Shown in pieces: positions 268 through 18,656 of a stretch of 27,857 bases of DNA (position 1 is its first letter; each line of letters begins with the position of its first letter). The stretch lies in the NCBI GenBank assembly GCA_035289405.1, contig DATDXH010000092.1, forward strand, positions 1 through 27,857, given 5' to 3'. The translations under genes were made by a program, and so were the position numbers. This stretch comes from an archaeon. Lineage in GTDB: Archaea > Aenigmatarchaeota > Aenigmatarchaeia > GW2011-AR5. Below the pieces are notes generated by a model. That model was not told the origin of the DNA, did not search any database, and was given only the letters and a program-made list of their open reading frames with translations.

Positions 268-359
268 TATAGTTCTCCAAGGAAAATACAATGTCACACC
301 CTTGGAAACTATATGTGAAGCAAATGTGTAATACCGTACTATTTATTTGCTTCATTATA
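268..359. repeat. Two tandem TA-bounded hairpin units
   Basis: 268-313: TATAGTT-c-TCCAAGG / CCTTGGA-AACTATA. 312-359: TATG-TGAAGCAAAT / ATTTGCTTCA-TTATA. The units share the TA at 312-313. Confidence 0.8.
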
Positions 360-375
360 ATTCCATTACTGCACT

Positions 376-390
376 AGAAACACTTTAAAT
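376..390 (+). promoter_or_regulatory. Archaeal BRE/TATA promoter
   Basis: AGAAAC then TTTAAAT (384-390), 29 nt before ATG 413. The same TTTAAATCCTTT string lies at 7316, also 29 nt before an ATG. Confidence 0.65.
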
Positions 391-412
391 CCTTTCTTTC
401 CATCTTCTCCAA

Positions 413-1363
413 ATGCGGGCACTAATAACTGGCATCACGGGGTTCACCGGCAGCCATATGGCCGAGTACCTGCTCAAGAACGGCCACGAAGTCGTTGGAA
501 CCGTACGCGGGCGGAATAGGCAAACAGAATTCATAGACGGCCTCAAGAACAAAATAACACTTCTCGAATGTGACCTTACAGACACGAACTCCGTCTCGCA
601 GACGCTTGACGAGGCTACGCCCGACGTTATATTTCATCTTGCTGCGCAGTCCTTCGTGCCTACAAGCTGGCGGGCTCCGCAGGAAACAATCAACACGAAT
701 GTCATAGGCACACTCAATGTCTTGGAGTCCATGAGGAGGTCAAAAACAGATGCAGTAATCCAGATAGCGGGCAGCAGCGAGGAGTACGGGCTTGTACACG
801 AGAACGAAACGCCAATAAAAGAGACAAACCAGCTGAGGCCGCTAAGTCCGTATGCAGTTTCCAAGGTTGCGCAGGACTTGCTTGGCTACCAGTACCACAA
901 GAGCTACGGAATGAAAGTCGTGCGCACACGCGCATTCAACATAGTTGGGCCTCGCAGCGCAGAGAAAATAGTCACTGCGGCATTCGCCAAACAGATAGCC
1001 GAGATAGAGAGAGGCGCAGAGCCGGTTATACACGTGGGCAATCTTGACGCGTTCAGGGATTTCACGGATGTGCGCGATATAGTACGCGCTTACACACTTG
1101 CGGTCGAGAAGTGTGAGTATGACGAGGTGTACAATATATGCTCAGGGAAGACTTGGAAGATACGGGACGTGCTACAAATGCTGCTTTCTATGTCTACAAA
1201 GAAAATTGAAATACAAGAGGACCAAGCAAGGATGAGACCTAGTGATGTCCAGATACTTCTCGGGGACAATACAAAGTTTCGCAGCAAGACTGGCTGGGCA
1301 CAAAAGATACCATTTGAGCAGACACTGAAAGATGTCATGAATTACTGGAGAAAGAAGGCCTAG
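413..1363 (+). CDS. GDP-sugar SDR enzyme, Rmd-like (GDP-4-keto-6-deoxymannose reductase / Gmd family), paralogue 1
   Basis: GITGFTG Rossmann motif, HLAAQSFV, GSSEEYG, YAVSK catalytic motif, VGNLDAFRDFTDVRD and RPSDV closely resemble characterised Rmd. Confidence 0.85.
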   Translation: MRALITGITGFTGSHMAEYLLKNGHEVVGTVRGRNRQTEFIDGLKNKITLLECDLTDTNSVSQTLDEATPDVIFHLAAQSFVPTSWRAPQETINTNVIGTLNVLESMRRSKTDAVIQIAGSSEEYGLVHENETPIKETNQLRPLSPYAVSKVAQDLLGYQYHKSYGMKVVRTRAFNIVGPRSAEKIVTAAFAKQIAEIERGAEPVIHVGNLDAFRDFTDVRDIVRAYTLAVEKCEYDEVYNICSGKTWKIRDVLQMLLSMSTKKIEIQEDQARMRPSDVQILLGDNTKFRSKTGWAQKIPFEQTLKDVMNYWRKKA

Positions 1364-1608
1364 TAGATTTACACTAAGGTAGTTTTTAGATTTAAAATGT
1401 CTACTATGTTATAGTTAACCAAGTAAAGAATCCGGATATTATAACTTGGTTTACTATGCTCAGAAAGCAAAGCTTTCTGGCATGCCGAAGAACTTTGTTC
1501 TTCGAGCATATGTGACCAACTTGTGTTATACGAGAAAGAACGAAGTTCTTTCTGTACAACAAGAGCTTGCTCTTGTTTGTATACCAAATATTAAGTTGGT
1601 CAACTATA
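1361..1608. repeat. Array of TA-bounded hairpins with two Y-shaped twin-hairpin units
   Basis: Hairpins 1361-1406 (TAGTAGA/TCTACTA) and 1410-1457 (ATAGT-t-AACCAAGT/ACTTGGTT-t-ACTAT); twin hairpin 1457-1508; hairpin 1509-1608 (TGACCAACTT/AAGTTGGTCA) with twin hairpin 1531-1579 in its loop. Confidence 0.85.
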
Positions 1609-1625
1609 ATAGAGGATGTGATTTT

Positions 1626-2588
1626 ATGGACTGGAATGGCGTTAGAGTTCTTGTAACAGGCGCGGACGGGTTTATGGGTTCGCATCTTACAGAGCGGCTT
1701 TTACGTGAAAGGGCAGACGTTTCTGTTTATGTACGCGGAACATCTGACAGTGGCACTGTCCAATACAAGCTGAAAAATATAAACCACATACAAAAGGATC
1801 TTAAATCAATAGTTACTGGCAACATAGGGAATGCCGATTCTATAAAACTAATAGAAAAAAACAATCCACAAATAATTTTTCACCTCGCGGCCGATGCTTA
1901 TGTGCCGAATTCTTTCGAGCACCCTCTTGAGGTTATGGAAACAAATGTCATAGGCACACTAAATGTACTACACGCTTCTATGCACCTGAAAGAACTTCAG
2001 CAGGTTGTTTGTACATCTTCGAGCGAGATATACGGTTCTTCCAGCATACCCATAAACGAGGACCACCCACTCAACCCTACCTCGCCTTATGCCGCATCAA
2101 AGGTGGCTGCAGACAGATATTGCTTTTCTTACTGGAATACCTATAAACTACCCGTTGCGATAATAAGGCCGTTCAACACTTACGGCCCTAGACATACCTA
2201 TGACGTAATACCAAAATTCATCAACCTAGCTCTACAAAACAAGAACCTTACTATATACGGGACTGGAAACCAGACAAGAGATTTTACGTACGTCGACGAC
2301 ATGATAAGCGCATTTATTTTAATGGGATCGGAAAAGAAGGCTATTGGCCAGGCCGTAAATTTTGGCACTTCAAAAGACATAAGCATAAAGGATGTGGCCG
2401 AAAAGATAATAAAAATAAGCAGGTCAGCCGCAAGGACGGTGCATGTGAAAGAAAGACTTGCAGAAGTTACAAGACTTTGCTGCGATTACAATAAGGCTAA
2501 TAAGCTGTTTGGATGGGCCCCTACTATAGGGATAGATGAAGGTCTAAAAAGAAATATAGAATGGGCTTCTGCAAGTACAAAATTCTAG
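1626..2588 (+). CDS. NAD-dependent NDP-sugar 4,6-dehydratase, LegB-like
   Basis: VTGADGFMGSHL, TSSSEIYG, HPLNPTSPYAASKVAAD, RPFNTYGPR and EVTRLCCD match the LegB-like dehydratase group. Start moved to ATG 1626 (GTGAT site upstream); the ORF-track extension runs through the repeat array. Confidence 0.8.
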   Translation: MDWNGVRVLVTGADGFMGSHLTERLLRERADVSVYVRGTSDSGTVQYKLKNINHIQKDLKSIVTGNIGNADSIKLIEKNNPQIIFHLAADAYVPNSFEHPLEVMETNVIGTLNVLHASMHLKELQQVVCTSSSEIYGSSSIPINEDHPLNPTSPYAASKVAADRYCFSYWNTYKLPVAIIRPFNTYGPRHTYDVIPKFINLALQNKNLTIYGTGNQTRDFTYVDDMISAFILMGSEKKAIGQAVNFGTSKDISIKDVAEKIIKISRSAARTVHVKERLAEVTRLCCDYNKANKLFGWAPTIGIDEGLKRNIEWASASTKF

Positions 2589-2607
2589 ACATGAGGCAAT
2601 GATAACG

Positions 2608-3540
2608 ATGCGTATAATTATAATAGGCCCAACACTTTTGACAAGGCATTGTTTGGAGGCAATTATAACAGAAGGCAAAGATGAAATATTGGCTGTTTAC
2701 GTACTCGACGACACATTTGCATGGGTTAAAAGCCGTTTTGCAATTATGGATGATACAGCGCAAAAAAATAACATAAATCTTTACAAGGTATCAAATATAA
2801 ACGACAGGTCTGTAATTGATCAGATTAAAAAATTCCAGCCTGACGTAATTCTCGAGCTTGGCTGGTCCCAGATAATTTCACCTGAGATACTTTTGATACC
2901 TAAAAAGGGCTGTATAGGTGTTCATGCGTCATTGCTGCCTAAGAATAGGGGTGCTGCATCGCTTAATTGGGCACTTATCAAAGGCGAGAAGAAAACGGGC
3001 GTCACACTTTTTTATCTTGCTGAGAGGCCAGATGACGGTGATATAATAGCCCAAAAGGAATTCGCTGCGGACGAACGGGATGACATTGAAACGTTGCACG
3101 CAAAATCAGACCTCGCAAGCGTTGAACTTCTAATGGAAAATATGGGTGCTATAAGAAATGATACTGTTAAAAGAATACCGCAAGACATGAAACAAGTCAC
3201 GTACACACCTAGAAGAAAACCGGAAGACGGGGTAATAAGCTGGACAAGACCCTCCATTGAAATTTACAACTGGGTAAGGGCCCAGTCGCACCCTTTTCCA
3301 GGCTCATTCACATTTTGGAAAAACAAAAAATTATATGTGTGGCGCGTAAAAATTTCTGAATACAAGTCTGTCTCAAGGCCTGGAGAGATTTCCATGATTA
3401 AAAACAAACAGGGCGTACTTGTAAATACGACTGATAACATGATCCTCTTGGAACGTGTTCAATTTGATAATGGAATAGAGATGTGGGCCGATGAACTAGC
3501 AAGAAAATACAACCTTCAAGATGGTGATTTCCTTGGATAA
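2608..3540 (+). CDS. N10-formyl-THF-dependent formyltransferase (Fmt/ArnA N-terminal-like), probably a sugar N-formyltransferase
   Basis: GVHASLLPKNRG, PDDGDII and a C-terminal Fmt-type domain (PEDGVISW...EIYNWVRA...PFPGSFT). Alternative start 2599. Confidence 0.85.
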   Translation: MRIIIIGPTLLTRHCLEAIITEGKDEILAVYVLDDTFAWVKSRFAIMDDTAQKNNINLYKVSNINDRSVIDQIKKFQPDVILELGWSQIISPEILLIPKKGCIGVHASLLPKNRGAASLNWALIKGEKKTGVTLFYLAERPDDGDIIAQKEFAADERDDIETLHAKSDLASVELLMENMGAIRNDTVKRIPQDMKQVTYTPRRKPEDGVISWTRPSIEIYNWVRAQSHPFPGSFTFWKNKKLYVWRVKISEYKSVSRPGEISMIKNKQGVLVNTTDNMILLERVQFDNGIEMWADELARKYNLQDGDFLG

Positions 3541-4669
3541 TAACATAAATAATGCTATGTCATGGCTACTGAATTCCGGAATACAAAATACAAAAGACGA
3601 CAATACTGGCAGTTTTAATGCTTGGTATGACATGTCTACAGGAACCTACCCATTTATTTATTCAGAGATAACTGGGTACGGAATAAGTACACTGGTTTAT
3701 GCAAACTCTATCAACAAGGATGATGCCTACAAGGAACATGCAAAGACTGCGGCCAACTGGATTATAAATTTAATGACTGCGAATGGCAACATTATTGCAA
3801 GAATTTATTCTGGCCACAAACCTGATTTAAAGTATTTTGGTAGTAATGTATCTTACACATTCGATAATGGAATGGTTCTTTCTGGTCTTGTAAGTATTTA
3901 CTTGGCAACAAAAGATGACAAGTACCTACTAGCAGCGATAAAAATTGCAGAATCCATCTTGAAGACGCAAAAAAGTACAGGACTATTCAATGCAGCTTAC
4001 GATGCAGCAACCGGGGAATATATTGATATTCAGGACAAGTGGTCGACACAGTCTGGAAGCTATCACGCAAAGCTTGCCATAGGGCTTCTTGATTTGTACG
4101 AGGCAACACATAATAAAATTTTTAAAGACGCAGCGGTTGGCGTATGCAACGCATCACTTGGGTTGCAGGCTGATGACGGCAGGTTTGTAACACAACAGAA
4201 TGAGAACAGCACACATATGCATCCACACTGCTATTCGGCAGAAGGACTCGTCTACGCGGGAATTGGCCTTGGTGAAAAGCGGTTCCTTGATAGTGCCTTG
4301 CGCGCTGTTAAATGGGCCCTTGATAACCAACTTAGTAATGGTGGCATGCCGTGCAAATATGTCGATGGCAAATTCATTGAACATGAACGCAGCGATACGC
4401 TTGCGCAGGTTCTTAGATTAGGGGTAATCCTGAAGGATATCGGATTGCTCGTTGGTTATGAAAAGCGTCTGGAGCGGCTAGCTTCTAGGCTTGTTCAGTT
4501 CCAAAACACTTCAGTTGATAATAGCGGTGGATTTTTCTACGGAACGGAGCTTGACGGAACAAAAAAACCTCACCTAAATTCGTGGGTGACCATGTTTTCC
4601 ATACAAGCAATGCACATGTACAATAGTTACACAAAAGGCGAAAGAATAGAATTAAAGCCTTTTGTATAG
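3533..4669 (+). CDS. Uncharacterised alpha/alpha-toroid protein (prenyltransferase/squalene-cyclase-repeat-like)
   Basis: Repeated helix + Q-x-x-x-G-x-F motifs (QKSTGLF, QADDGRF, QLSNGGM) and YSEITGY motif. Start TTG 3533 proposed from GGTGAT 5 nt upstream; ATG 3521 and 3557 are alternatives. Confidence 0.6.
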   Translation: MDNNINNAMSWLLNSGIQNTKDDNTGSFNAWYDMSTGTYPFIYSEITGYGISTLVYANSINKDDAYKEHAKTAANWIINLMTANGNIIARIYSGHKPDLKYFGSNVSYTFDNGMVLSGLVSIYLATKDDKYLLAAIKIAESILKTQKSTGLFNAAYDAATGEYIDIQDKWSTQSGSYHAKLAIGLLDLYEATHNKIFKDAAVGVCNASLGLQADDGRFVTQQNENSTHMHPHCYSAEGLVYAGIGLGEKRFLDSALRAVKWALDNQLSNGGMPCKYVDGKFIEHERSDTLAQVLRLGVILKDIGLLVGYEKRLERLASRLVQFQNTSVDNSGGFFYGTELDGTKKPHLNSWVTMFSIQAMHMYNSYTKGERIELKPFV

Positions 4670-4679
4670 CCATAAGTTT

Positions 4680-5927
4680 ATGGATAAAGTTTTTTCTATT
4701 ATAGAAAAAGAAAAACAACGCCAGCTTGATACGTTAGAACTTATCCCTTCGGAGAACTACGTTTCGCAGGCCGTATTAAGGGCTTTAGGGTCTGAAATGA
4801 ATAATAAGTACTCTGAGGGTTACCCTGGCAAGCGCTATTACGGCGGCAACATTTTTGTAGATGAAATAGAGAACATAGCTATAGAACGTGCAAAGAAACT
4901 CTTTGGTACAAACCACGCAAACGTACAGCCCTATTCAGGCAGCCCAGCCAATATGGCGACTTGTTTTGCATTGCTGGAACCAGGTGAAAAATTAATGGGC
5001 ATGAGCCTTTCTTATGGTGGACATCTAACACACGGTCATGCTGTGAACTTTTCAGCCCGATATTACGGCTCTGCGCAGTACCCAACAGGAAAAGACGGGT
5101 GGCTAGACTACGATCTTATAGAAGAAATAGCGAGACGCGAAAGACCAAAACTTATTTTTTGTGGTGCAACAGCCTATTCGCGCGTCTTCGATTTTAGACG
5201 TCTCGGAGAGATAGCGACATCAGTGGATGCATTTCTTGTGGCCGATGTCGCGCACATAGCAGGTCTAATAATCGGGGGCGTTCATCCAACCCCAGTTGGC
5301 ATAGCTGATGTTATTACAACAACTACACACAAGACGCTGCGCGGGCCGAGGGGTGCGATGATATTGTGTAATGGCAACAGTTCTGACCCGCTCAAGGTGC
5401 CGGAAAAGACGCGCAATAACCTACCGTCTCTGATCGATCGTGCAGTATTTCCAGGCTTGCAGGGTGGTCCTCATAACCACACTACGGCCGGTATAGCTGT
5501 TGCTCTTGGCGAGGCATTGGAGCCATCCTTCGCTGAATATGCAAAACAGATAGTCAAAAACGCAAAAGTTTTGGGTGCGACTCTTATAGAGAACGGTCTT
5601 GATGTGGTCACTGGTGGCACTGATAACCACCTATTACTTCTTGACCTAACCAAAATCGGAATCACTGGCAAAGAGGCAGAAACATTACTTGATATTGCTG
5701 GAATAACTGTCAACAAGAATACAGTACCTTTCGATAAAAGAAAACCGTTCGATCCTAGTGGCATAAGACTGGGCACACCTGTCGTGACTACAAGAGGTAT
5801 GAAAGAAAGTCATATGGGGTTAATCGGCGACATGATTGTTGATGTTCTGATCAGGAAAAAGAAACCAGAATATGTTAGGGAGAGTGTGTTCGATCTTTGT
5901 AAAGACTTTCCAGCTTTTGCATGGTGA
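4680..5927 (+). CDS. glyA: Serine hydroxymethyltransferase, bacterial-type
   Basis: PSEN, NKYSEGYPGKRYYGG, NVQPYSGSPAN, GGHLTHG, PLP lysine in TTTTHKTLRGPRG, FPGLQGGP. Confidence 0.96.
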   Translation: MDKVFSIIEKEKQRQLDTLELIPSENYVSQAVLRALGSEMNNKYSEGYPGKRYYGGNIFVDEIENIAIERAKKLFGTNHANVQPYSGSPANMATCFALLEPGEKLMGMSLSYGGHLTHGHAVNFSARYYGSAQYPTGKDGWLDYDLIEEIARRERPKLIFCGATAYSRVFDFRRLGEIATSVDAFLVADVAHIAGLIIGGVHPTPVGIADVITTTTHKTLRGPRGAMILCNGNSSDPLKVPEKTRNNLPSLIDRAVFPGLQGGPHNHTTAGIAVALGEALEPSFAEYAKQIVKNAKVLGATLIENGLDVVTGGTDNHLLLLDLTKIGITGKEAETLLDIAGITVNKNTVPFDKRKPFDPSGIRLGTPVVTTRGMKESHMGLIGDMIVDVLIRKKKPEYVRESVFDLCKDFPAFAW

Positions 5928-5931
5928 TTGT

Positions 5932-6786
5932 ATGGCGGCACAAATACTGGACGGCATGAAAATAGCATCAAGTATAGAGGAAGATGTTAAAAGAGTGCTT
6001 AGTAATTCCGATGTCAAGCCTTCAATAGTATTTTTTGTTGTGGGCGACAACCAAGCAACCAAAGTTTACGTAAGGAAAAAACAGGAGGCATGTGAAAGGG
6101 TTGGAATTTTATCTAATGTTGTCTCATTTAATGGGGACGTTTCGGAGAATGAGTTGATAGAAAAAATACAAGAGGTAAACTCCTCCAACACAACCGGTAT
6201 AATAGTCCAGCTGCCGCTGCCAAAGCATATAAATGAGAACTTAGTCGTCTCATCTATTTCTACGGAAAAAGACGTGGATTGCATGCACCCAGAAAATATA
6301 GGCAAACTTCTCTACTCTTCGGAGCTTGTACCTTGCACTGTGTCAGGGATAATGAGACTTATAGAAGAAACAGGTACAAATGTCGCTGGCAAGAATGTGA
6401 CTGTGATAAACAGGCGACATATAGGTAAGTGCCTTTCCATACTACTGTTAAACATGAAAGCCACCGTGTCGGTGTGCGGACGTAACAGCCAACTAGAACT
6501 TTATACAAAACACGCTGACATAGTAATTAGTGCTGCCGGATCTCCGGGGTTGATAAAAAGAGACATGATAAAACCGGGAGCGGTTGTAATTGATGTTGGA
6601 ATAAGCATGTACGAAGGAAAAATAAGGGGTGATGTAGACGACAACGTCAGAGATATCGCCTCGTTTGTCACGCCTGTGCCGGGCGGCGTAGGTCCCATGA
6701 CAGTTGCAATGTTAATGAAGAATACGTCTGACATGGCTGTGAGAAACTCAATTAGCCATGATTTATACAAGAAACACAACATTTAA
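5932..6786 (+). CDS. folD: Methylenetetrahydrofolate dehydrogenase/cyclohydrolase
   Basis: YVRKK, VQLPLP, KDVD, PCT, VIDVG and TPVPGGVGPMTVAML; GGTGAT site before ATG 5932. Confidence 0.93.
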   Translation: MAAQILDGMKIASSIEEDVKRVLSNSDVKPSIVFFVVGDNQATKVYVRKKQEACERVGILSNVVSFNGDVSENELIEKIQEVNSSNTTGIIVQLPLPKHINENLVVSSISTEKDVDCMHPENIGKLLYSSELVPCTVSGIMRLIEETGTNVAGKNVTVINRRHIGKCLSILLLNMKATVSVCGRNSQLELYTKHADIVISAAGSPGLIKRDMIKPGAVVIDVGISMYEGKIRGDVDDNVRDIASFVTPVPGGVGPMTVAMLMKNTSDMAVRNSISHDLYKKHNI

Positions 6787-6811
6787 TTTTTGTTGTTACA
6801 CGGTGTAATTA

Positions 6812-7252
6812 ATGGAAACTAATTTGATATTATTGATCGCCCTTGGTATTGCATTTAATGTTTCTATAAGGCTAATCTTGCGAGGTTCAAGACATTTTAT
6901 AGGAGTAGATGCTATGCCGGCATTTCCAATTGCCGCTGGTTACCTCTACGGATTTACCGGCGGATTATGGGCGGGTATAGTGATTTCTGTAAGCTATTAT
7001 TTCATGGGTGGCAAGAACATTTCATACGCACCTCTTATAGTTTTAATTAACGCGCTCGTTGGAGCATTTTCTACATTATTTGCTGGCTGGACGTTCGTAA
7101 CGGCAGGATTTTTACTACTTTTTGTTTATCATGCGATTTCGCTGTTCGTAGTCTCTACGTTAAGCGAACCAGGGCCTGGATATTTCACTTTTATGGTGTT
7201 AAATCTCGTATCTTCCGGTTTGATAATTTATTTTGCCTCACAATTTATATGA
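6812..7252 (+). CDS. Small polytopic membrane protein, possibly ECF S-component-like
   Basis: 146 aa, almost entirely hydrophobic, about 5 helices; IAAGYLYGFTGGLWAGIV resembles the helix-2/3 G-P-x-x-G-x-x-x-G pattern of S-components. Confidence 0.5.
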   Translation: METNLILLIALGIAFNVSIRLILRGSRHFIGVDAMPAFPIAAGYLYGFTGGLWAGIVISVSYYFMGGKNISYAPLIVLINALVGAFSTLFAGWTFVTAGFLLLFVYHAISLFVVSTLSEPGPGYFTFMVLNLVSSGLIIYFASQFI

Positions 7253-7315
7253 GTAGTCAGAATTTTAGCGTAGTATATTTCTAGGCTTGTACCAAAATGT
7301 GGTATATTTATGGCG

Positions 7316-7322
7316 TTTAAAT
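7316..7322 (+). promoter_or_regulatory. TATA box
   Basis: TTTAAAT 29 nt upstream of ATG 7345, same context as the 384 box. Confidence 0.6.
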
Positions 7323-7344
7323 CCTTTTTTCAGGTTTGTTATCT

Positions 7345-8457: not shown

Positions 8458-8479
8458 GTCAATATGTATTTGTGATTTT

Positions 8480-9199
8480 ATGAAAGATTTTATGTCTGTC
8501 GTAATACCTGCCTATAACGAGGAGCAGAATATAAAAAGGATACAGGATGAACTCATGCCAGTTATGAAAAGTATGCCACTGACTTACGAGATTATAGTAG
8601 TCGACGATGGTTCTACCGACAATACTTATAATGAGGCCCTGAAAATTTCAAAGACAAATAAAAAAGTCCGGATAGTAAGACACAAGAGGAACATGGGCCT
8701 TGCAGCGGCCACACGTACTGGCATAAAAAGTTCTCGAGGCAATATTTCAGTTTTTCTGGATTCTGATTTTACCTTTCATCCCAGCGAGATGCCTAAACTT
8801 TATAAAAAATATAAAGAAACTGGTTGCGATTGCGTTGTCGGCTCCCATTTTGGCCCGAGTGGCGATCCTGATCTATTGTTCCACAGGCTTGTATTGAGCA
8901 AAGGCGTTAACAAGCTTTACAGCACATTTCTTGGCAAAAAGATATCCACAATAAGCTCCATTTTTCGTCTTTACAAAACAGCCGAAATAAAGAAACTCAA
9001 GCTAAACAGCAAGGGATTTGACATATGCGCTGAAATCCTTGTCAGGATGATACAAAATAAATGCCACATAGAGGAGGTTCCGGTAAGGCTGACTACTAGG
9101 ATATATGGCGAGTCAAAGCTTAACAACAGGAAAGAATTTGTAAATCATATTAAGATGCTCTCTAAGGTGGCGTCGTGGAAGATAAAGGGAAAACAATGA
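8480..9199 (+). CDS. GT2 polyprenol/dolichol-phosphate sugar synthase-like glycosyltransferase
   Basis: SVVIPAYNEE, VDDGSTD, DSD motif, GESKL. GTGAT upstream of ATG 8480; ATGA overlap with the next gene. Confidence 0.88.
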   Translation: MKDFMSVVIPAYNEEQNIKRIQDELMPVMKSMPLTYEIIVVDDGSTDNTYNEALKISKTNKKVRIVRHKRNMGLAAATRTGIKSSRGNISVFLDSDFTFHPSEMPKLYKKYKETGCDCVVGSHFGPSGDPDLLFHRLVLSKGVNKLYSTFLGKKISTISSIFRLYKTAEIKKLKLNSKGFDICAEILVRMIQNKCHIEEVPVRLTTRIYGESKLNNRKEFVNHIKMLSKVASWKIKGKQ

Positions 9200-10740: not shown

Positions 10741-10742
10741 AC

Positions 10743-12239
10743 TCACTCAGTTTGCGCCATTTCGAATGTAGTTCCGGATTCCCACCCGAAGCTTCTTTTA
10801 ACCATCATGTCAAGGAATTTTATACTGGCAGTTTTCTCGAATTTATGCTTTTCCCAGTTCTTCTTGTAGTTTGCAGACAACGCGCGTATGAAGAACTTGG
10901 GGACTCTTGTGTTTCTAAGAACCTGGCAAAGCCGTTTTCCGTCGACAAATTTAGACGTGTACATTATTGTCTCTAGCATCTCTTTCTTGTCCTGTATCCA
11001 TGGCGTATAGGTCTGCTGCCTGCTGAAGGCCACCCATTCCTCCAGTGTTTTTGGCACTACAAATCCCTGCTGCACGGCGTAGTCGAACAGAGGCGCACCG
11101 AGGTACGGCACAAAGATGTAGAACTGTGTTATATGAGCGTTCCGGTTTTCTTTGACCAGTTGCAACGCAAGGTCAACGGTTTCCATGAGCTCCTCGTACG
11201 ATTCGCCTGGAAAGCCCATCATGAAATTGTAAAATGCCTTGATATTTGTTTGTGCGAGTTTTTTATTGGCCGCGATCATCGTCGCTTTGTTTTCAGCCTT
11301 GTTAATGAGTTTCAGTATACGGTCGCTGCCCGACTCAACGCCTGGCTCTACAACGCGCAGGCCCCCTTCCTCGAGTTTTTTCATGTCCGTAATTAACATG
11401 TTGTCCATACGTGCCTGCATGGACCAGCTGAATTCACCGTTAATCATTTCAGCTATTCTTTCAGCACGTCTTGGATTCGACGTGAAGTTCTCGTCGTAAA
11501 ATTTCACGACGTTGAGCTTGTACTTCTTTACCATCTTGCTTACACGTTCGTAGGCAAGCTCGGCTGTCATGCTCCTCCAATTCCCCTTGCTTATTCCTGC
11601 CGTGCTACAGAATGTGCATGTGTAAGGGCAGCCGCGGCTCGAGATAAAGGGCAGTGTTCGTTCCTTGGCGTCAAATGAAATTCCGCCGCTTTTCACATAA
11701 TTCTCAACGTCGACAAGATCGTACGGTATTTCCGGTATCTTGTTCGGATCTGGCGATTCCGCTCGCGGGTTCATTTTAATGGCGCCATTCTCTTTGTAGG
11801 CTATACCATTTACACTATCAAGTTTGGTTTTGCCGTCAAGCGCAGCCATTATGTTCTGCAGAACAAACTCGCCTTCGCCCACTACGATCATGTCGATTAG
11901 ATTATGGCCTATGGTCTGTTCTGGCATAAGGGTCGCATGCACGCCTCCCCATAGGACAACCGATTTTGAATTGTTCTTTACAGAGCGTGATATATCCAGT
12001 GCATATTTGAGTTGTGTCCCTGTCATCGATGGTATCAAAACAACGCGCGGCCCTTTTGACAGTTCATTAGAAAAATTGGATTCGAAGTTGTCGTCTACCC
12101 TCTGGTCTAGTATCTTTACGTTATAATCGGCGTGCAAAGTGGACACCGTAGACAGGAGGCCTAGCGGAAGCTCGACTGACGAATTCTTTATATCGTATCC
12201 CGTCTTCGGGTACACTCCTAAGATGTCTGCCATTTTCAT
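10743..12239 (-). CDS. B12-binding domain radical SAM enzyme 1
   Basis: N-terminal PLGL...GGVHAT...GEGE cobalamin-binding domain; SRGCPYTCTFC; GVESG; MMGFPGE. Start 12239 or 12233. Confidence 0.9.
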   Translation of the reverse strand: MKMADILGVYPKTGYDIKNSSVELPLGLLSTVSTLHADYNVKILDQRVDDNFESNFSNELSKGPRVVLIPSMTGTQLKYALDISRSVKNNSKSVVLWGGVHATLMPEQTIGHNLIDMIVVGEGEFVLQNIMAALDGKTKLDSVNGIAYKENGAIKMNPRAESPDPNKIPEIPYDLVDVENYVKSGGISFDAKERTLPFISSRGCPYTCTFCSTAGISKGNWRSMTAELAYERVSKMVKKYKLNVVKFYDENFTSNPRRAERIAEMINGEFSWSMQARMDNMLITDMKKLEEGGLRVVEPGVESGSDRILKLINKAENKATMIAANKKLAQTNIKAFYNFMMGFPGESYEELMETVDLALQLVKENRNAHITQFYIFVPYLGAPLFDYAVQQGFVVPKTLEEWVAFSRQQTYTPWIQDKKEMLETIMYTSKFVDGKRLCQVLRNTRVPKFFIRALSANYKKNWEKHKFEKTASIKFLDMMVKRSFGWESGTTFEMAQTE

Positions 12240-12250
12240 TATTACAATAG

Positions 12251-12270
12251 GCGAACTTTTAAGGTTTCTG
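12251..12270. promoter_or_regulatory. Bidirectional BRE/TATA promoter
   Basis: GCGAAC-TTTTAAGG on + toward ATG 12294; AGAAAC-CTTAAAAG on - toward ATG 12239/12233. Only about 55 bp separate the divergent starts. Confidence 0.55.
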
Positions 12271-12293
12271 TATAGTAGAAAGAATGACATCAT

Positions 12294-13772
12294 ATGGGAG
12301 TTGGCAAGAGGTTCTTTGGGCGTAATTACGGGCTTATTCTACTTGCCATTATTTTGGTAACAGCTTTTTTTCTCCGGTTTAACGACCTTTCATGGGAGAC
12401 ATATGGGTATGGAGAAGTTGAAATAAAGCAGGCCGCAGACGAATACGTAAAAGGAAATTTCGTGAATAATTTTTATATCTTTGATACGCCTCCGCTTAGC
12501 AAATATATGTTTGCATTGTCGATTGCAATTTTCGGGGCCTCGGAATCCGCATTGAGAATAGTGCCGCTTATTTTTGGCATGCTAACGATTGTGGCGATAT
12601 TCCTTGCAACAAGAAAAATGTACAATGAAAAGACGGCTTTGCTCGCCTCCGCAATAACGGCCTTTTCCATACTCCAAATAGAGTTCAGCCGATACGCGCA
12701 GCTAGAGACCATGTTAAGCTTTTTTTACGTTCTTACAGTATATTTCCTCTGGGGAGCTGTCAACAACAGGAAATATGCGTACGTCTTTTTCGGGCTATCA
12801 CTTGGCCTGTCAATTGCAATAAAATTCACGTCAGTTATAATCCTCGTCGGAGCGCTTGTTTACATATTATATACAAAACAAGTAAAATTCTCCATAAAAC
12901 CCAGCTTTTCAATTAGCATTAAAAACTGGATATTGAAGTCACTTGTCATAGCGCTAGCCGTTTTTATAGTATCATGGCCTTTCGGGTTTTCACAGCTTTA
13001 CATGTCTGCCGATATAAGTGTGAATTATGGCGGGCAAATAAGGGAACAGCATATAGAAGCCGACGCCCCAATAATGCTACTGTCTTTTGCCAGACGTATC
13101 TTTTCTAGCGTGGAGTCTGATGTTGTTTACCCTCTAGCAATGAAAATACCGATATTGAATTACTTTCTTCTTTATGCGGTAAGGGAGAGCCTACTATTTT
13201 TGGCGCTGCTTGTTGCTGGCATTTATTTCGCGGCCAGGAAGCCGCTGCAACAGGACAGACTGATAATAATATTTATTGTAACGTTCCTTGTACTGCTTTC
13301 GTTCCAGAGGACTCTCATATCATACCGCCATATAGTTCCTATGGTGCCTCTTCTTGCCATTATTTCATCCAGGTGGCTGACAAAATTAAGCAACAGTAAG
13401 CAGTTCGTGTCGATATCTGTAATAGGTTTAATACTTCTGCTGTACGCAGCCCTTTCCGGCACGTCTTATTCACTTTCATACAACCCGCTTAAGAATGTTC
13501 TTGGCGTCCCAGACTCGGAGTTCAGGTTTTCGGAAGGCATGCGAGAGACTATAGACTATGCCAAAGAAAATTGCGAGAGCGTTTTCACGAGCGACTATTA
13601 CAAGTTCATAATGGAGCCTTATTACGACAAATTCTCGCCTTCTGCGGAATGCGCTGTAAAGGGAATTAGCGGCACCGCCATGGTCGATGAATATGTTGTG
13701 TCGCATAGTTGCGTAATATCAAAAACAATAACCAAGAATTCTATAAGTCTTATCGAGATTTATTCGTGCTGA
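12294..13772 (+). CDS. GT-C (ArnT/PMT-like) membrane glycosyltransferase 2
   Basis: LRF...PPLSKY...LRIVP...SRYAQLE...KFT pattern with many TM helices. The usual DE and HPP residues read GE and TPP. Confidence 0.78.
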   Translation: MGVGKRFFGRNYGLILLAIILVTAFFLRFNDLSWETYGYGEVEIKQAADEYVKGNFVNNFYIFDTPPLSKYMFALSIAIFGASESALRIVPLIFGMLTIVAIFLATRKMYNEKTALLASAITAFSILQIEFSRYAQLETMLSFFYVLTVYFLWGAVNNRKYAYVFFGLSLGLSIAIKFTSVIILVGALVYILYTKQVKFSIKPSFSISIKNWILKSLVIALAVFIVSWPFGFSQLYMSADISVNYGGQIREQHIEADAPIMLLSFARRIFSSVESDVVYPLAMKIPILNYFLLYAVRESLLFLALLVAGIYFAARKPLQQDRLIIIFIVTFLVLLSFQRTLISYRHIVPMVPLLAIISSRWLTKLSNSKQFVSISVIGLILLLYAALSGTSYSLSYNPLKNVLGVPDSEFRFSEGMRETIDYAKENCESVFTSDYYKFIMEPYYDKFSPSAECAVKGISGTAMVDEYVVSHSCVISKTITKNSISLIEIYSC

Positions 13773-13774
13773 AG

Positions 13775-15130
13775 CTACTGGCTAAGTACCATACCCTTGA
13801 CTACTTTCAAGCCCGTCATGTTTTTCTTAAGCTCCGAGAAAGACCGGATCTTTGAGACCCTTCTTAAGATATACTTCGGGCGCATGTAAAATCTCCTGAA
13901 CGCTTCCCTATGAATTTCAAGCAACTCCTCGCGGTTCTTGTATCCGTGCGGCACGAAGACCGGCGACCATCCATGGTAATCCTTGAAATTCTTGTCCAAT
14001 GTGCCCCACTTTTCATAGTTGTCCCACAGCTGGGTGCCGGGATAGGGCGTTGTAATTGAAAATTGTGCGTAATCAGGATCCATTTCTATTGCAAGCTGGA
14101 TTGTCTTACGTGCAAGTTCGGGCGTTTCGCCGGGTAGCCCGACCATGAAGGAGCCCCTTATTTCTATCCCGGACTTTTTCACGAGCTTGACCGCTGCTTT
14201 CATCTGTTCCACTGTCATCTTCTTTGTTATGTTGTCCAGCAGCTCTTGCGCACCCGACTCTATACCGAAGAATATGTTCCAACATCCGGCCTTTTTCATC
14301 GCATGGAGCAACGGCTCGTCTATAAGATCCAGACGTGTATAACATGACCAAATTATACCTTCTTTTTCCATCTCCTTGCAGAACTCATGGGTCCATTTCT
14401 TGTTTATTGTCAGTATGTCGTCCCAGAAGGCAATTTCCTTTATCTTGTAAGTTTCTTTGAGTTGCCTTATCTCGGTCATCACGTTTGCAACACTCCTCTG
14501 CCTGAAAAGACCCATCGCGTCAAAGCAGAACGTGCATGTAAACGGGCAGCCCCTGCTGGTCACCATTTGGAACGTGCCAGGATCTTTTTTGTAAGTATTG
14601 GGAAGTGAGGAGTATTTTGACATATCAAGCAGGTGCCGCGCGGGCAGCGGCAAAGAATCGAGGTCCTTGACCTTGCCTGCGTTGACCACCCTAAGCTGCT
14701 TGTACTTGTCAAGATTGTTTACAATGTCAATTATTATATTGTCGGCCTCTTCCTGCACTATTATGTCAGCCCTTGTCGTTTGCGCAAGCTCTTTCGCCAT
14801 TATAGTCGCGTGCGGCCCGCCCAACAGCACTACGACATTCGGAAACTGGTTTTTAATCAGGTCACAAAGCTCCTTTGTAACGTCGGCAAGGGACGTTAAA
14901 GCGGCTATACCGACCAGCTCAGGCTGAAAATTCATTATTTCTGTTGTGATATCGCCTGCGCCATGGTTATTGACGGGACAGTCCATTATATGAACTTCAT
15001 GCCCCTCCCTCTCAAGGACGGCTGCCATGTAGCATAGGCCAAGCGGCGGCAGGAAACCCCCAATACCTTCCACGTTGTGGGCGTACCTTTCAGTAAGCGT
15101 TTGCGGCGGAAAAATTAGTAATACTCTCAT
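13775..15130 (-). CDS. B12-binding domain radical SAM enzyme 2
   Basis: PPLGLCYMAAVL, GGPHAT, SRGCPFTCTFC, GIESG, MVGLPGET, PYPGT. Confidence 0.92.
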   Translation of the reverse strand: MRVLLIFPPQTLTERYAHNVEGIGGFLPPLGLCYMAAVLEREGHEVHIMDCPVNNHGAGDITTEIMNFQPELVGIAALTSLADVTKELCDLIKNQFPNVVVLLGGPHATIMAKELAQTTRADIIVQEEADNIIIDIVNNLDKYKQLRVVNAGKVKDLDSLPLPARHLLDMSKYSSLPNTYKKDPGTFQMVTSRGCPFTCTFCFDAMGLFRQRSVANVMTEIRQLKETYKIKEIAFWDDILTINKKWTHEFCKEMEKEGIIWSCYTRLDLIDEPLLHAMKKAGCWNIFFGIESGAQELLDNITKKMTVEQMKAAVKLVKKSGIEIRGSFMVGLPGETPELARKTIQLAIEMDPDYAQFSITTPYPGTQLWDNYEKWGTLDKNFKDYHGWSPVFVPHGYKNREELLEIHREAFRRFYMRPKYILRRVSKIRSFSELKKNMTGLKVVKGMVLSQ

Positions 15131-15153
15131 GATTCATAGTAAGGTGTATACCT

Positions 15154-15894
15154 TTAAGAAATTGTCCCGGCACGATGCGGCGAGTATTTTTTGAGCCTTA
15201 ATTTTACGTAAAGCCTTGAAAGGTTATTCAACATATCCACTATATTGTCCACGATAAATACGTTGCTCTCTTTCCGTTCATACCAGTCTATAGGAATCTC
15301 ACATATCTTGTATCCCATTTTTTCCGCGTAGATGAGAAATTCGGTATCCCAGAACCAGCCTTTATTGCCTATATACGGAATTAGCTTTTTGGCCAGGGAT
15401 TTTCGGAAAGCTTTGTAGCCGCATTTCGTGTCACGCATACTTGTCCGAAAAAGCAACCTCAGCAATACAGAAAAACTTTTGCCTGCAAACGACCTGGCGA
15501 ACGACCTCCTGACTGTCGCGGCAGGGCTGTATCTGGACGTAATAACTATGTCGTATTTTTTCATTTTTTCAAGGACTTCTTCTGTTATATCGAGGCTTGT
15601 CGAGAGGTCGATGTCCATGAAAATTATTTTTTCGCCTTTTGACGCATGTATTGCCTTCTCAATGGCTCCGCCCTTTCCGAGCCTCTTATTGCTGTGTATA
15701 TGCCTTATTTCCTTGTATTTTTTGGCGAGCTGCTGGCATATCTCTGGAGTCCTGTCATTGCTCTCCTCTACTATGACTATCTCGTAGTTTTCACCATATT
15801 TTTTCCTTATAGAATCCATTTTCTTTTTTATCAACAGCGCATTTTTCCTTGCTAGCAGCTGTTCATTATACGCTGGGATTATTATTGACAGCAT
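15154..15894 (-). CDS. GT2 dolichyl-phosphate sugar synthase-like glycosyltransferase
   Basis: SIIIPAYNEQ, GKGGAI, FMDID, DTKCGYKAF, WFWDTE, EIPIDW. Start ATG 15894, TATA 31 nt upstream. Confidence 0.88.
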   Translation of the reverse strand: MLSIIIPAYNEQLLARKNALLIKKKMDSIRKKYGENYEIVIVEESNDRTPEICQQLAKKYKEIRHIHSNKRLGKGGAIEKAIHASKGEKIIFMDIDLSTSLDITEEVLEKMKKYDIVITSRYSPAATVRRSFARSFAGKSFSVLLRLLFRTSMRDTKCGYKAFRKSLAKKLIPYIGNKGWFWDTEFLIYAEKMGYKICEIPIDWYERKESNVFIVDNIVDMLNNLSRLYVKLRLKKYSPHRAGTIS

Positions 15895-15917
15895 CGAGAA
15901 ACCACACTTTTTCAAGG

Positions 15918-15925
15918 TTTATATA
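15918..15925 (-). promoter_or_regulatory. TATA box
   Basis: TATATAAA on the minus strand, 31 nt upstream of ATG 15894. Confidence 0.6.
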
Positions 15926-15945
15926 CATTTACCAAATAACGCTTT

Positions 15946-16091
15946 TATAGCTGTACAAGGGGACGGTAATGTTATTAGTTCCTTGTGAGCTATACATGGC
16001 TAAGCCGTGCTTAGCCTGTACAGGAAAACCGTTGGTTTTCCGTGTATGCGAACCCATAAAATATGTTGGGTTCTTTTATGGGTTAGCTATA
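15946..16091. repeat. Hairpin + Y-shaped twin hairpin + hairpin array between divergent genes
   Basis: 15946-15994 TATAGCT..ACAAGG / CCTTGT..AGCTATA; 15995-16044 GGCTAAGC-cgt-GCTTAGCC TGTACA GGAAAACC-gtt-GGTTTTCC; 16051-16084 AACCCATAAAA / TTTTATGGGTT ending AGCTATA. Confidence 0.85.
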
Positions 16092-16092
16092 A

Positions 16093-17034
16093 ATGACAAA
16101 TATTTTGATAACGGGCTGTGAGGGTTTCATAGGATCGTACATGGCAGAACTTATGCTTGAGAAGGGCCACAGCGTTTATGGCACGGTGTTCGGGTCTACA
16201 GAAAATATAGACCACCTAAAGGGTAAGATCAACATACTAAAGGTTGATATGTCCGACAAGGCCCAGATAGAAGACGCAGTCAAAAAATCCAGACCTGACA
16301 TAATTTTTCATCTTGCCGCCCAGAGCTACGTCCTGCCGTCGTGGCGGGACATTGAGGGGACACTAAATTTGAATGTCCTGGGCACGGTACACCTTTTTGA
16401 TGCGGTCAGAAAGACAGGCATAAATCCGGTGATAGTATTTGCAAGCTCCTCAGCGGGTTACGGGCTTACACACGAAGATGAAATACCCATAAAAGAGAAC
16501 AAAGAGTTAAGGCCGTCCTCTCCGTACGCCGTAAGCAAGATATCGGCCGACATGTTTTGCTACATATATTGGAGAGCATACGACATGAAAATCATACGCG
16601 CAAGAATTTTCAACACAATAGGACCAAGAAAAAAGGGCAATGCCATCTCGGATTTCGCACGGATGATTGTAGAAGTAGAAAAAGACCGGCGTGAAAAAAT
16701 AACCGTTGGAAATCTTGAGCCGGTTCTTGATTTGACTGACGTAAGGGACACGACGAATGCTTTGTGGACCCTTGCAAAAAGCGGTGCACACGGCGAAGCT
16801 TACAATATATGCTCGAGCAAGGGCCGCAAAATAAAGGATGTACTGAACATGATGATATCTCTTTCAAAAAAACCTATAAATATAGAGGTCGACCGGAAGA
16901 AATTCAGGCCGGCAGACGACCCAATATTTGTTGGGGACAACACAAAGCTCAGGGGCCTTGGCTGGGAACCAGAAATAATTATAGAGAAATCATTGAAAGA
17001 TACTCTGGATTATTGGAGGAAGGTAATTAAATGA
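16093..17034 (+). CDS. GDP-sugar SDR enzyme, Rmd-like, paralogue 2
   Basis: GCEGFIG, HLAAQSYV, SSSAGYG, YAVSK, VGNLEPVLDLTDVRD. Ala replaces the Glu of SSE, which fits a reductase or epimerase better than a dehydratase. Confidence 0.8.
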   Translation: MTNILITGCEGFIGSYMAELMLEKGHSVYGTVFGSTENIDHLKGKINILKVDMSDKAQIEDAVKKSRPDIIFHLAAQSYVLPSWRDIEGTLNLNVLGTVHLFDAVRKTGINPVIVFASSSAGYGLTHEDEIPIKENKELRPSSPYAVSKISADMFCYIYWRAYDMKIIRARIFNTIGPRKKGNAISDFARMIVEVEKDRREKITVGNLEPVLDLTDVRDTTNALWTLAKSGAHGEAYNICSSKGRKIKDVLNMMISLSKKPINIEVDRKKFRPADDPIFVGDNTKLRGLGWEPEIIIEKSLKDTLDYWRKVIK

Positions 17035-17969
17035 AAACGCTTGTTACGGGCGGGGCAGGATGTATAGGCTCCGAGGCCGTTTGCAGACTACTGGAACGGG
17101 GAAAGGTTGTCATAGTGGACAATCTCAGCAGCGGCAAAATCGAGCACATAGAAAAATTCCTAGATAACAAGGATTTCAGGCTGGTCGAGGCGGATATAAC
17201 GAGCGATGACCTTACAGGCCACCTCGATGGCGTCGACATGGTTTTTCATCTTGCCGCAAACCCGGACATAAAATTCTCAGCCGGAGACAGGACGGACAAA
17301 GATCTTAACCAGAATACCATAGCGACGTACAATGTTCTCGACGCCATGCAAAAAACTGGCGTGAAGAAAATTGCCTTCTCGTCGTCGTCGGTTGTCTACG
17401 GCAAGGCTGACAGGATACCGACACCCGAGAACTATGGACCACTAAAACCTACGTCACTTTATGGTGCCAGCAAACTTGCCTGTGAAGCCCTGGTCTCTGC
17501 GTATTGTAACATGTTCGGCATGCAGGGCTGGATATTCCGCTTTGCAAATATTGTAGGCGATAAAAGCAGGAAAAAAGGACGTACTGTTGTGTCAGATTTT
17601 ATATTCAAGCTTCGTAATGACCCTACACATCTGGAAATCCTCGGGGACGGCAGGCAGTCAAAATCTTATTTACTTGTGGACGAATGCGTTGACGGCATGA
17701 TTTTTGCAGTGGACCATTCAAACGACCCTGTGAACATATTCAATCTGGGGACAAAAGACGCCATAACCGTTGACGAGATAGCAAAAATAGTTATAAATGA
17801 AATGGGTTTAAAAAATGTGAAAATCTCCCATACGGGAAGCTCGGGCGGGTGGCCAGGCGACATTACAAATTTTTTACTGGACGTGACAAAACTAGAAAAA
17901 CTCGGATGGTCATCTCGCCACAATTCTGCCGAGTCTGTCAGAACATCTGCGAAAAGAATGCTTGGTTGA
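17031..17969 (+). CDS. NAD-dependent epimerase, archaeal UDP-glucose 4-epimerase-like
   Basis: GGAGCIG, DNLSSG, HLAANPD, SSSSVVYG, YGASK, DFIFKL, LGDGRQSKSY and GWPGD resemble characterised archaeal GalE; ATGA overlap with the upstream gene. Confidence 0.82.
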   Translation: MKTLVTGGAGCIGSEAVCRLLERGKVVIVDNLSSGKIEHIEKFLDNKDFRLVEADITSDDLTGHLDGVDMVFHLAANPDIKFSAGDRTDKDLNQNTIATYNVLDAMQKTGVKKIAFSSSSVVYGKADRIPTPENYGPLKPTSLYGASKLACEALVSAYCNMFGMQGWIFRFANIVGDKSRKKGRTVVSDFIFKLRNDPTHLEILGDGRQSKSYLLVDECVDGMIFAVDHSNDPVNIFNLGTKDAITVDEIAKIVINEMGLKNVKISHTGSSGGWPGDITNFLLDVTKLEKLGWSSRHNSAESVRTSAKRMLG

Positions 17970-17977
17970 CAACTCGG

Positions 17978-18355
17978 CTATTTTGGTGAATTATCTTTCT
18001 TATTTAGCCATTCTATCTCGGGAAACGTACCGTCCATTCTGCCGTCTTGGACATATTTTACACCGAGCTTCATGCATGTCCATGCCCGGGTCAATTCCTT
18101 GGAAAGATAACCAACATGATCTCTCATTATGCCTGGCACGTCTTCCACTATCTGTCTGTATATGTCTTGTGGCAGTTTGCCCACCCAGAATTTTTTAATG
18201 ACATTTATGTTTTTGTAATCGCAAAGACCGGCCTCGATGACATCATTGTTTATCCTTATCAAAAAGTACCCAATTGGATCCATCTCTTCGTCGCCTTTGG
18301 GCTTGCATTCCACTGCTTCAGCCTCGGTCTGCGGTTTTTTCATGTCAAAGTGCAT
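17978..18355 (-). CDS. DUF4346 domain protein
   Basis: DPIGYFLI...G...HVGYLSKEL..A...G..YVQD matches the DUF4346 pattern. Start 18355 or 18343. Confidence 0.75.
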   Translation of the reverse strand: MHFDMKKPQTEAEAVECKPKGDEEMDPIGYFLIRINNDVIEAGLCDYKNINVIKKFWVGKLPQDIYRQIVEDVPGIMRDHVGYLSKELTRAWTCMKLGVKYVQDGRMDGTFPEIEWLNKKDNSPK

Positions 18356-18373
18356 TTAGTCACCAGATGTTTA

Positions 18374-18432
18374 TCCGAGAATGCATTGAAAACTGACTTC
18401 ATGAAAGCAGATGAAACTCAATGCATTCTGGA
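18374..18432. repeat. Inverted repeat
   Basis: Perfect 12-bp arms AGAATGCATTGA (18378-18389) / TCAATGCATTCT (18418-18429), extendable by TCC/GGA. Confidence 0.75.
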
Positions 18433-18435
18433 CGC

Positions 18436-18483
18436 TATGTTCCATGAAACCCACGACTTTAGTCGTGAGATATTAGGAACATA
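18436..18483. mobile_element. Possible IS200/IS605-family end relic inside a TA-bounded unit
   Basis: GAAACCCACGACTTTAGTCGTGAG (18446-18469) resembles IS605/IS1341 end hairpins; it is enclosed by TATGTTCC / GGAACATA. No transposase is present in the window. Confidence 0.45.
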
Positions 18484-18536
18484 TCATTTATTAAGCGTAA
18501 CATTTATGAACCTTCGTTTCTACGAACAATCGGATT

Positions 18537-18632
18537 TATAGTTAACCCAGTAAAGATCCTTAATATGATTTACTGGGTTCACATATAACTCACAAGGAAG
18601 TAATATTCTTTTTGTTTCCTTGTAGAGTTATA
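18537..18632. repeat. Two tandem TA-bounded hairpin units
   Basis: 18537-18587 AACCCAGTAAA / TTTACTGGGTT; 18584-18632 TATAACTC-ACAAGGAA / TTCCTTGT-a-GAGTTATA. Homologous to the reverse complement of 15946-16091 without the Y unit. Confidence 0.85.
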
Positions 18633-18656
18633 AGCTTTATCACGAGATATAACTCC

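Follow-up and report, generated by a model that had tools for sequence, protein, structure and literature searches.

The window analysed here, the 27,857-nt contig DATDXH010000092.1 of an archaeon of the Candidatus (Ca.) Aenigmatarchaeota, contains four arrays of short palindromic hairpins bounded by TA dinucleotides. These hairpins are very probably the halves of a MITE (miniature inverted-repeat transposable element) derived by internal deletion from a 1128-bp insertion sequence (IS) of the IS630 family, which is endemic to Ca. Aenigmatarchaeota. The complete element is a pair of hairpins that is dispersed in many copies, has terminal inverted repeats (TIRs) matching the ends of an IS630-family IS of the same genome, duplicates a TA at its target site, and is present or absent at one locus in co-existing strains. 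The transposase encoded by this IS, on contig C24, is the putative mover of the MITE, as judged from sequence. The window is the entire contig C92 of a bin (G000) of 725 kb, which comprises 111 contigs and is 74% complete; other contigs of the bin are cited by their C numbers. The bin is archaeal, as its small subunit (SSU) rRNA matches the archaeal model, and its nearest named RpoB relatives all belong to Ca. Aenigmarchaeota/Aenigmatarchaeota. The DNA of the window occurs in groundwater and soil metagenome runs of 2015-2016, and no RNA run carrying it is listed among the public runs.

Anatomy and copy number of the element

With regard to copy number, the bin was scanned for TA...TA stretches of 42-58 nt by means of a gapped score for self-complementary arms, with a Markov shuffle as background. 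An ungapped palindrome scan was dropped, as it missed most units because their arms hold 1-nt indels. At a score of 11 or more, the bin contains 166 palindromes, against 5 in the shuffled sequence, and at a score of 12 or more 130 against 2, so the observation is real and far above chance; a stricter palindrome scan gives 96 against 0-1. The sequence-only reading of this DNA had proposed a dispersed, TA-targeting, MITE-like family, and this part of it stands. The 166 palindromes consist of 156 single hairpins and 10 twin hairpins. The family occupies about 100 loci on 55 of the 111 contigs, which represents 1.16% of the bin, with two clusters of array length, near 95 nt (33 loci) and near 147 nt (13 loci).

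Most units (77%) are intergenic, against a non-coding share of 16% in the genome. The orientation of the flanking genes tracks intergenic length, with no bias towards 3' or 5' ends, and the units are thus neither terminators nor tied to divergent promoters. Intrinsic terminators, which the sequence-only reading had also dismissed, were rejected on two further grounds: the window units have no T-run, and among the 104 placed units only 18 have convergent genes on either side, a number that intergenic length predicts. The same reading had suggested a possible role as recombination hotspots that shuffle glycan genes, with enrichment at glycan-locus borders as a point to check. The glycan locus is not enriched in arrays: the density is the same, about 1 per 7 kb, in the window (4 arrays in 27.9 kb) and in the bin (100 loci in 725 kb), and nothing shows either recombination or shuffling.

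Once aligned, the hairpins are asymmetric: one arm is a full TIR of about 29 nt, and the other is the first 17 nt or so of this TIR, inverted. The full arm exhibits, in this order, TATAG, 7 variable bases, AGTAAAGAA, and TCTGGAYAT. As the TIR is followed by an inverted copy of its own beginning, each half folds as a hairpin of 46-51 nt. Among the abutting pairs that can be oriented, the full TIRs point outward in 18 and the reverse in 1; among those separated by an insert of about 50 nt, they point outward in 12 of 12, which brings both kinds of pair together to 30 of 31. The sequence-only reading had taken the hairpin of 46-51 bp as the element and had considered it much shorter than Correia elements. 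The unit seen to move is instead the pair, of 92 bp, or 96 bp including the TA on each side, which falls in the size class of Correia elements and RUP; with a central twin hairpin it reaches about 147 bp. It is small and non-coding and has outer inverted ends of about 29 nt, which is the anatomy of a MITE. The stems are variable between units, and 100 oriented units contain 41 different 8-nt cores. Stem complementarity is 0.78 to the unit's own partner arm versus 0.53 between units.

All arrays of the window fit this pair plan (Table 1). The arrays 268-359 and 18537-18632 are plain pairs, whereas in 15946-16091 a twin hairpin occupies the central TA of the pair. In 1410-1608, which is a like composite, the loop of the right half contains a further, nested twin hairpin. 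The arrays 15946-16091 and 18537-18632 lie between divergent genes, as first noted from the sequence, and the other two between same-strand genes. The TATAG...CTATA ends, as well as the TAs common to neighbouring units, are visible in the window sequence. Each unit was folded as single-stranded DNA and compared with 200 shuffles. Eight of the nine units listed by the sequence-only reading are real, with z scores of -4.0 to -6.5 and none of the 200 shuffles folding equally well. Absent from that list are the twin-hairpin units 1455-1510, 1531-1579 and 15995-16044 of these arrays, as well as the oriented pairing of the hairpins. The subfamily likeness that had been described also holds: 1409-1442 and 18536-18569 are 79% identical, and the reverse complement of 15945-15994 is 76% identical to 18584-18633 over 50 nt. 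A BLAST search of the bin with 1361-1620 gave 36 matches, and no Rfam family was found in the window at the gathering score.

The ninth listed unit, 1361-1406, is not a member of the family. It folds with a z score of -0.62, 42 of 200 shuffles fold as well, it lacks TATAG ends, and no second copy was found in the genome. It overlaps the stop codon of the gene at 413-1363.

Target site, strain polymorphism and the IS630-family element

The locus of the 18537-18632 element was retrieved from other assemblies through the flanking 125-aa protein and aligned. Six assemblies contain the empty allele, GGATT-TA-AGCTT, with a single TA. The filled allele, found in the window and in the loci L065 and L070, has identical flanks, save for two linked single-nucleotide polymorphisms (SNPs), to which the 92-bp element and a second TA are added. 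Two further assemblies exhibit scaffold gaps at this site. As the flanks are near-identical, co-existing strains differ by a MITE insertion, and the presence/absence polymorphism to which the sequence-only reading had pointed is borne out. In addition, contigs of two metagenome runs contain a joint between positions 18536 and 18631 that leaves out 94 nt and has an overlap of 2 nt, and the depth of this joint is about 0.4 of that of the main form; the shorter side of this joint is only 28 letters, which would be weak evidence if alone. At 268-359, 1410-1608 and 15946-16091, no polymorphism was seen, the gene spacing being equal in other assemblies.

The two SNPs, at about 18641 and 18681 in the upstream/start region of the HIT gene, are fully linked to the filled or empty state in the nine assemblies. 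They mark two co-existing strain haplotypes.

The target context is shared by the pairs and the IS. Of 46 pairs, 33 have a T before the left TA and 31 have an A after the right TA, and this T-TA-A context is that of the IS copies described below. The twin hairpins likewise insert at TA. The unit 1531-1579 shows an exact TA duplication when compared with the empty 51-nt form at C11:15166-15216, which has a single TA; MAFFT misplaced the gap between the filled and empty forms of 1509-1608, and the shared flanks are evident from the sequences themselves. A second nested twin hairpin with an exact TA duplication is found at C67:1315-1467, compared with C36:4548-4596. Metagenome contigs skip 1529-1579 and 1456-1507, with a 2-nt ambiguity. 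A census of the bin found 21 perfect twins, against 0 in the shuffle, and the 50-nt spacer of separated pairs is always a twin hairpin, with the frame TACA-stem-GTAC-stem-TGTA.

The bin contains one intact IS630-family transposase gene, at C24:2051-3094 on the minus strand. The encoded protein, of 347 aa and HTH-HTH-DDE (helix-turn-helix and DDE) organization, matches Pfam HTH_32, HTH_33 and DDE_3, and scores 225 bits against NCBIfam NF033545 (cut-off 100). The corresponding IS spans C24:2046-3173 (1128 bp) and runs from TATAG to CTATA, with the stop codon inside its right inverted repeat (IRR). The full arms of the hairpins match the left inverted repeat (IRL) of this IS at up to 28 of 30 positions, whereas the IRL and IRR match each other at only 22 of 34. 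When all TATAG-starting 30-mers of the genome are compared with the IRL, they centre on a match of 12 of 30, and the hairpins form a separate tail. Relatives of the transposase in public data form about 55 clusters of 57-89% identity, two of which are labelled Aenigmatarchaeota, and many of these homologues lie on stand-alone contigs of about 1130 nt. The protein search was the more productive one, as a search for related loci with the transposase returned only two. Five independent IS copies, of 69-89% amino-acid identity and at unrelated loci, are each exactly 1128 bp long, have the same ends as the C24 copy, and are flanked by T-TA...TA-A. The ends therefore belong to the IS, which did not land in a pre-existing hairpin. 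The variants found at the right end of these copies resemble the second common type of hairpin. Since many pairs combine one IRL-like and one IRR-like end, the pair looks like an internally deleted IS.

Based on these matches, the following mechanism can be proposed. The 347-aa transposase of C24, or a relative of it, would bind the element ends in trans, excise the element and paste it into a TA, preferably T-TA-A, with duplication of the TA. An IRL-type and an IRR-type end would have been retained after the internal deletion, with the full TIRs outward. A second TA-specific non-autonomous family, the twin hairpins of 48-52 nt, lands in the central and loop TAs of the first family, and these insertions give rise to the composites of about 147 and 199 nt.

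No second TA-duplicating transposase was found. The ends of the IS4/IS5-type elements of the bin are unrelated to those of the MITE, and no match to the TnpB-type family PF07282 was obtained. The same is true of the mariner family PF01359, but the control search also matched no genome, so this last result is uninformative. Of the transposases that the sequence-only reading had named as possible companions, an IS630-family one is present, on C24; the HUH-type ones of the genome are Y1 genes, and the two Y1 proteins tested do not score as RAYT (REP-associated tyrosine transposase).

Together, the IS630 element, the IS4/IS5 types, four IS200 copies and a tyrosine recombinase make the mobilome rich for an approximately 1-Mb genome. 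The three IS4/IS5-type DDE transposase genes are located at C25:7869-8795, C100:1123-2157 and C24:5310-6242. In L016, a tyrosine recombinase with a zinc ribbon (4441-5616) adjoins an IS200 element. On C85 (L017), an IS200-type element at about 2341-3035, whose Y1 transposase is encoded on the minus strand at 2393-2827 and whose ends are GC-rich hairpins, splits one hairpin unit into a left piece of 15 nt and a right piece of 38 nt.

Distribution and alternative explanations

The family is widespread among close relatives. Copies of the composite at 15940-16095 were found in 20 of 41 related genomes: in 9 of 10 species of the same genus, in 16 of the 24 family members, and in a few genomes from other families of the order. 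No copy was detected in the same-genus species G004, an assembly of 8 contigs. Whole-pair copies of 18537-18632 are present at 80-92% identity in the same-genus genomes searched. A degenerate 30-nt pattern of the TIR, required to match exactly, was found in 44 stretches among 185,579 species genomes, all of them in metagenome-assembled genomes (MAGs) labelled Aenigmatarchaeota or "archaeon"; GW2011_AR5 is among the latter. Viral contigs contained no match to two degenerate patterns.

Several observations weigh against a derivation of these elements from the IS by deletion and their mobilization by its enzyme. The TIR varies at positions 6-12 from one subfamily to another, and even between the outer ends of one element, so that one enzyme would need to tolerate differing TIR cores. 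The ends of the IS fold weakly, at -3 to -7 kcal/mol, whereas the MITE units are strong hairpins; a plain deletion therefore leaves the fold-backs and the compensating changes unexplained. The complementarity of each stem to itself could possibly result from repair within the palindrome, from separate origins in IS variants, or from structural selection. Between the twin hairpins and the IS ends there is no sequence in common, and the closest copy of the polymorphic element in its own genome is only 84% identical. Finally, among the 41 relatives searched, 20 of which have elements, the transposase occurs only in G015 and, as fragments, in G026, in addition to the present bin; it was not found in the near-complete assemblies G013, G010 and G014 (2, 3 and 10 contigs), although these contain elements. 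This rarity is partly due to the loss of repeat contigs of about 1.1 kb in binning, which probably does not explain the absence from assemblies of 2-3 contigs, and many lineages appear to hold orphan MITE copies.

It is conceivable, although unlikely, that the fold-backs are needed by the element. The transposase may recognize extruded hairpin or cruciform ends, which would explain why the stems co-vary with only TATAG and the TCTGGAYAT box fixed. Alternatively, in these genome-reduced archaea the elements may persist as portable modules that preserve or donate promoters, because they would insert into the T-TA-A within TATA boxes and restore such a box at both of their ends.

The origin of the pair by internal deletion of the IS630-family IS remains strongly preferred over three other explanations. 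Each hairpin has a TA at either side, with one TA common to neighbours, twin hairpins are indeed inserted in existing units, and lone TATAG-type hairpins exist (C34:2216-2270, C101:8062-8108, C71:4325-4373), all of which could suggest that the single hairpin of 46-51 bp is independently mobile and that arrays arise from the new TATA-rich targets made by each insertion. This is nevertheless improbable in view of the 30 to 1 excess of pairs with outward full TIRs, the conservation of whole pairs across species, and the junction of IRL-like and IRR-like ends, as in the IS. Moreover, the polymorphic locus passes from empty to a whole pair in one step, and many of the apparently solo hairpins either have a partner that escaped the scan or are members of different hairpin families. 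The likeness to repetitive extragenic palindromic (REP) sequences, to bacterial interspersed mosaic elements (BIMEs) and to REPINs lies in the short extragenic palindromes, the mosaic arrays and the stems that vary with compensating changes, and the genome contains four solo Y1_Tnp genes. A spread by an HUH tyrosine transposase (RAYT) acting on single-stranded hairpins, as the REP-like part of the sequence-only reading implied, can nonetheless hardly be upheld. The two Y1 proteins tested score as IS200, with 108 and 96 bits (cut-off 55), the sole match to the RAYT model reaches 28.5 bits for a cut-off of 80, so that no RAYT gene is recognized, and the hairpins that flank each of the four Y1 genes are GC-rich and unrelated. 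The elements themselves are symmetric, duplicate their TA target and have DDE-type TIRs matching the IS630 ends, and the palindromes lack the GTAG/CGTC tag at their foot, as this tag is defined in PMC3733652.

A function for the host, as promoter or TATA modules, RNA stabilizers, terminators or protein-binding sites under selection, with mobility being incidental, is very unlikely. It would agree with the stem complementarity kept across 41 different core sequences and with the TATA-like CTATAA that each element end recreates. In addition, 47% of the gene-facing array ends lie 10-35 nt from a candidate start codon, and the element end at 16091 is 1 nt from an ATG. This proximity does not differ significantly from that of free TTAA sites (47% versus 35% within 10-35 nt, p = 0.07, with start codons only crudely called). 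Of the 897 free TTAA sites within 150 nt of candidate start codons in the non-coding DNA of the bin, 174 lie in a peak 20-29 nt upstream, which fits the TATA boxes of mostly leaderless genes. The availability of targets therefore accounts for the closeness of the elements to genes. One co-existing strain lacks the 18537-18632 copy at an otherwise near-identical locus, the orientation of the neighbouring genes simply follows intergenic length, the units have neither a U-tract nor an Rfam match, and G004 does without any detectable copy.

Other repeats were observed in the bin. Adjoining the polymorphic MITE site, the window contains another structured repeat of about 120 nt (18368-18489), made of two long hairpins, each with an inner hairpin. 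It is present in both the filled and the empty alleles. Copies of it are found at C56:1056-1181 (88%) and C46:4514-4637 (85%), on C103 and C106, and many in same-genus genomes, and the C103 copy bears a twin-hairpin insertion. The orthologous region of G009, of the same genus, is without the pair and without this repeat; its coding flanks are at 72-75%, and the edges are undefinable. At least two further families of TA-flanked hairpins have different ends (TATTGAGAACTTTGA... and TACAAGGAATACCACC...; see Table 1 for other TA-flanked hairpins). With regard to the assembly, contig ends of the bin overlap other contigs by exactly 141 nt (e.g. C40:1-141 and C10:8762-8902); these overlaps are the k-mer of the assembler, not biology, and inflate naive repeat counts. 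The 16S rRNA gene at C9:1794-4905 matches the 1478-position archaeal model in two pieces over about 3.1 kb, so that it carries large insertions, possibly introns.

Table 1 Double-hairpin and twin-hairpin elements of the window, with other TA-flanked hairpins of the bin (z scores are for parts in the order given)
Feature	Position	Parts and boundaries	Folding and copies
Double-hairpin MITE, diverged member	268-359	Halves 268-313 and 312-359; TA at 268-269 and 358-359, flanked by T...A	z about -4.1 to -4.3 for the halves; found by the TA-palindrome scan; aligns to IS ends and other units
Composite MITE	1410-1608	Left full-TIR hairpin 1410-1457; twin-hairpin unit 1455-1510; right full-TIR hairpin 1509-1608	z -4.1, -6.3, -6.5; 201-nt copy, 97% identical, at C21:10989-11190
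Nested twin-hairpin (S-S) unit	1531-1579	At the TA of the 1509-1608 loop; flanking TA at 1529-1530 and 1580-1581	
Composite MITE, about 146 nt	15946-16091	Hairpin 15946-15994; twin-hairpin unit 15995-16044; hairpin 16045-16091; ends 1 nt ahead of the ATG at 16093	z -4.0, -7.1, -5.9; copy, 84% identical, at C11:13169-13320
Double-hairpin MITE, strain-polymorphic	18537-18632	92-bp element 18539-18630 between TAs 18537-18538 and 18631-18632	
Other TA-flanked hairpins	C79:2699-2744, C85:3522-3566, C86:2130-2175, C16:5294-5339; C43:676-729, C16:4961-5014, C35:5444-5498	No linked transposase	

Comparison with known elements and implications

The family is an IS630/Tc1-mariner-type MITE family, working like RUP, MITEEc1, Correia elements and the Sulfolobus MITEs. 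RUP is a pneumococcal MITE of about 107 bp attributed to IS630-Spn1; it is non-coding, has ends matching IS630, duplicates TA and occurs as many dispersed intergenic copies. The elements described here share with it a length of about 100 bp, ends matching an IS630-family IS of the same genome, the TA duplication and the dispersed intergenic copies. In contrast to RUP, their host is a DPANN archaeon, their outer TIR cores differ, each TIR forms a hairpin with its own fold-back, which gives two side-by-side hairpins and not one long one, and they carry nested twin-hairpin passengers. Correia elements (CREE/NEMIS) of Neisseria also duplicate TA and have TATAG ends, measure 100-155 bp, occur in high copy number near genes and have ends able to provide promoter-like sequence, and to our knowledge no parent IS has been identified for them. 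Here, a parent IS630 is present and the host belongs to a different domain of life. Only the TATAG start and the TA duplication are in common, which is a resemblance and not membership.

The Sulfolobus MITEs and other IS-derived MITEs serve as further comparison (PMC3718332, PMC10969869), and MITEEc1_IS630 is named in PMC11602168. The Sulfolobus elements SM, SMN1 and SM3A, of 164-320 bp, are moved by transposases of resident ISs acting in trans (PMC3718332, citing Redder et al. 2001). They are likewise archaeal and non-autonomous, but they depend on ISC1733 or ISC1058, are without the double fold-back, and belong to Crenarchaeota and not to DPANN.

No paper describing the present family was found in the searched literature, in agreement with the sequence-only reading, which had called it undescribed. 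To that reading the analysis adds a parent IS with matching ends and a filled and an empty allele of the same locus. The surprise is limited, as IS630-type MITEs with TA duplication are familiar; the lineage is little studied. With genomes of about 1 Mb, DPANN archaea are regarded as streamlined. The bin nevertheless contains about 138 MITE loci per Mb, which is in the range of the highest archaeal densities of a 2024 survey, where two DPANN genomes, Ca. Altiarchaeum hamiconexum and a Woesearchaea genome, are among the three highest (PMC11602168). Co-existing strains still differ by at least one insertion. In practice, MITE copies break MAG assemblies, and the elements may be taken for RNA genes or for regulatory palindromes. 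Furthermore, they are lineage-specific markers for Aenigmatarchaeota and, with the parent IS named, the family gains a testable mobilizing enzyme.

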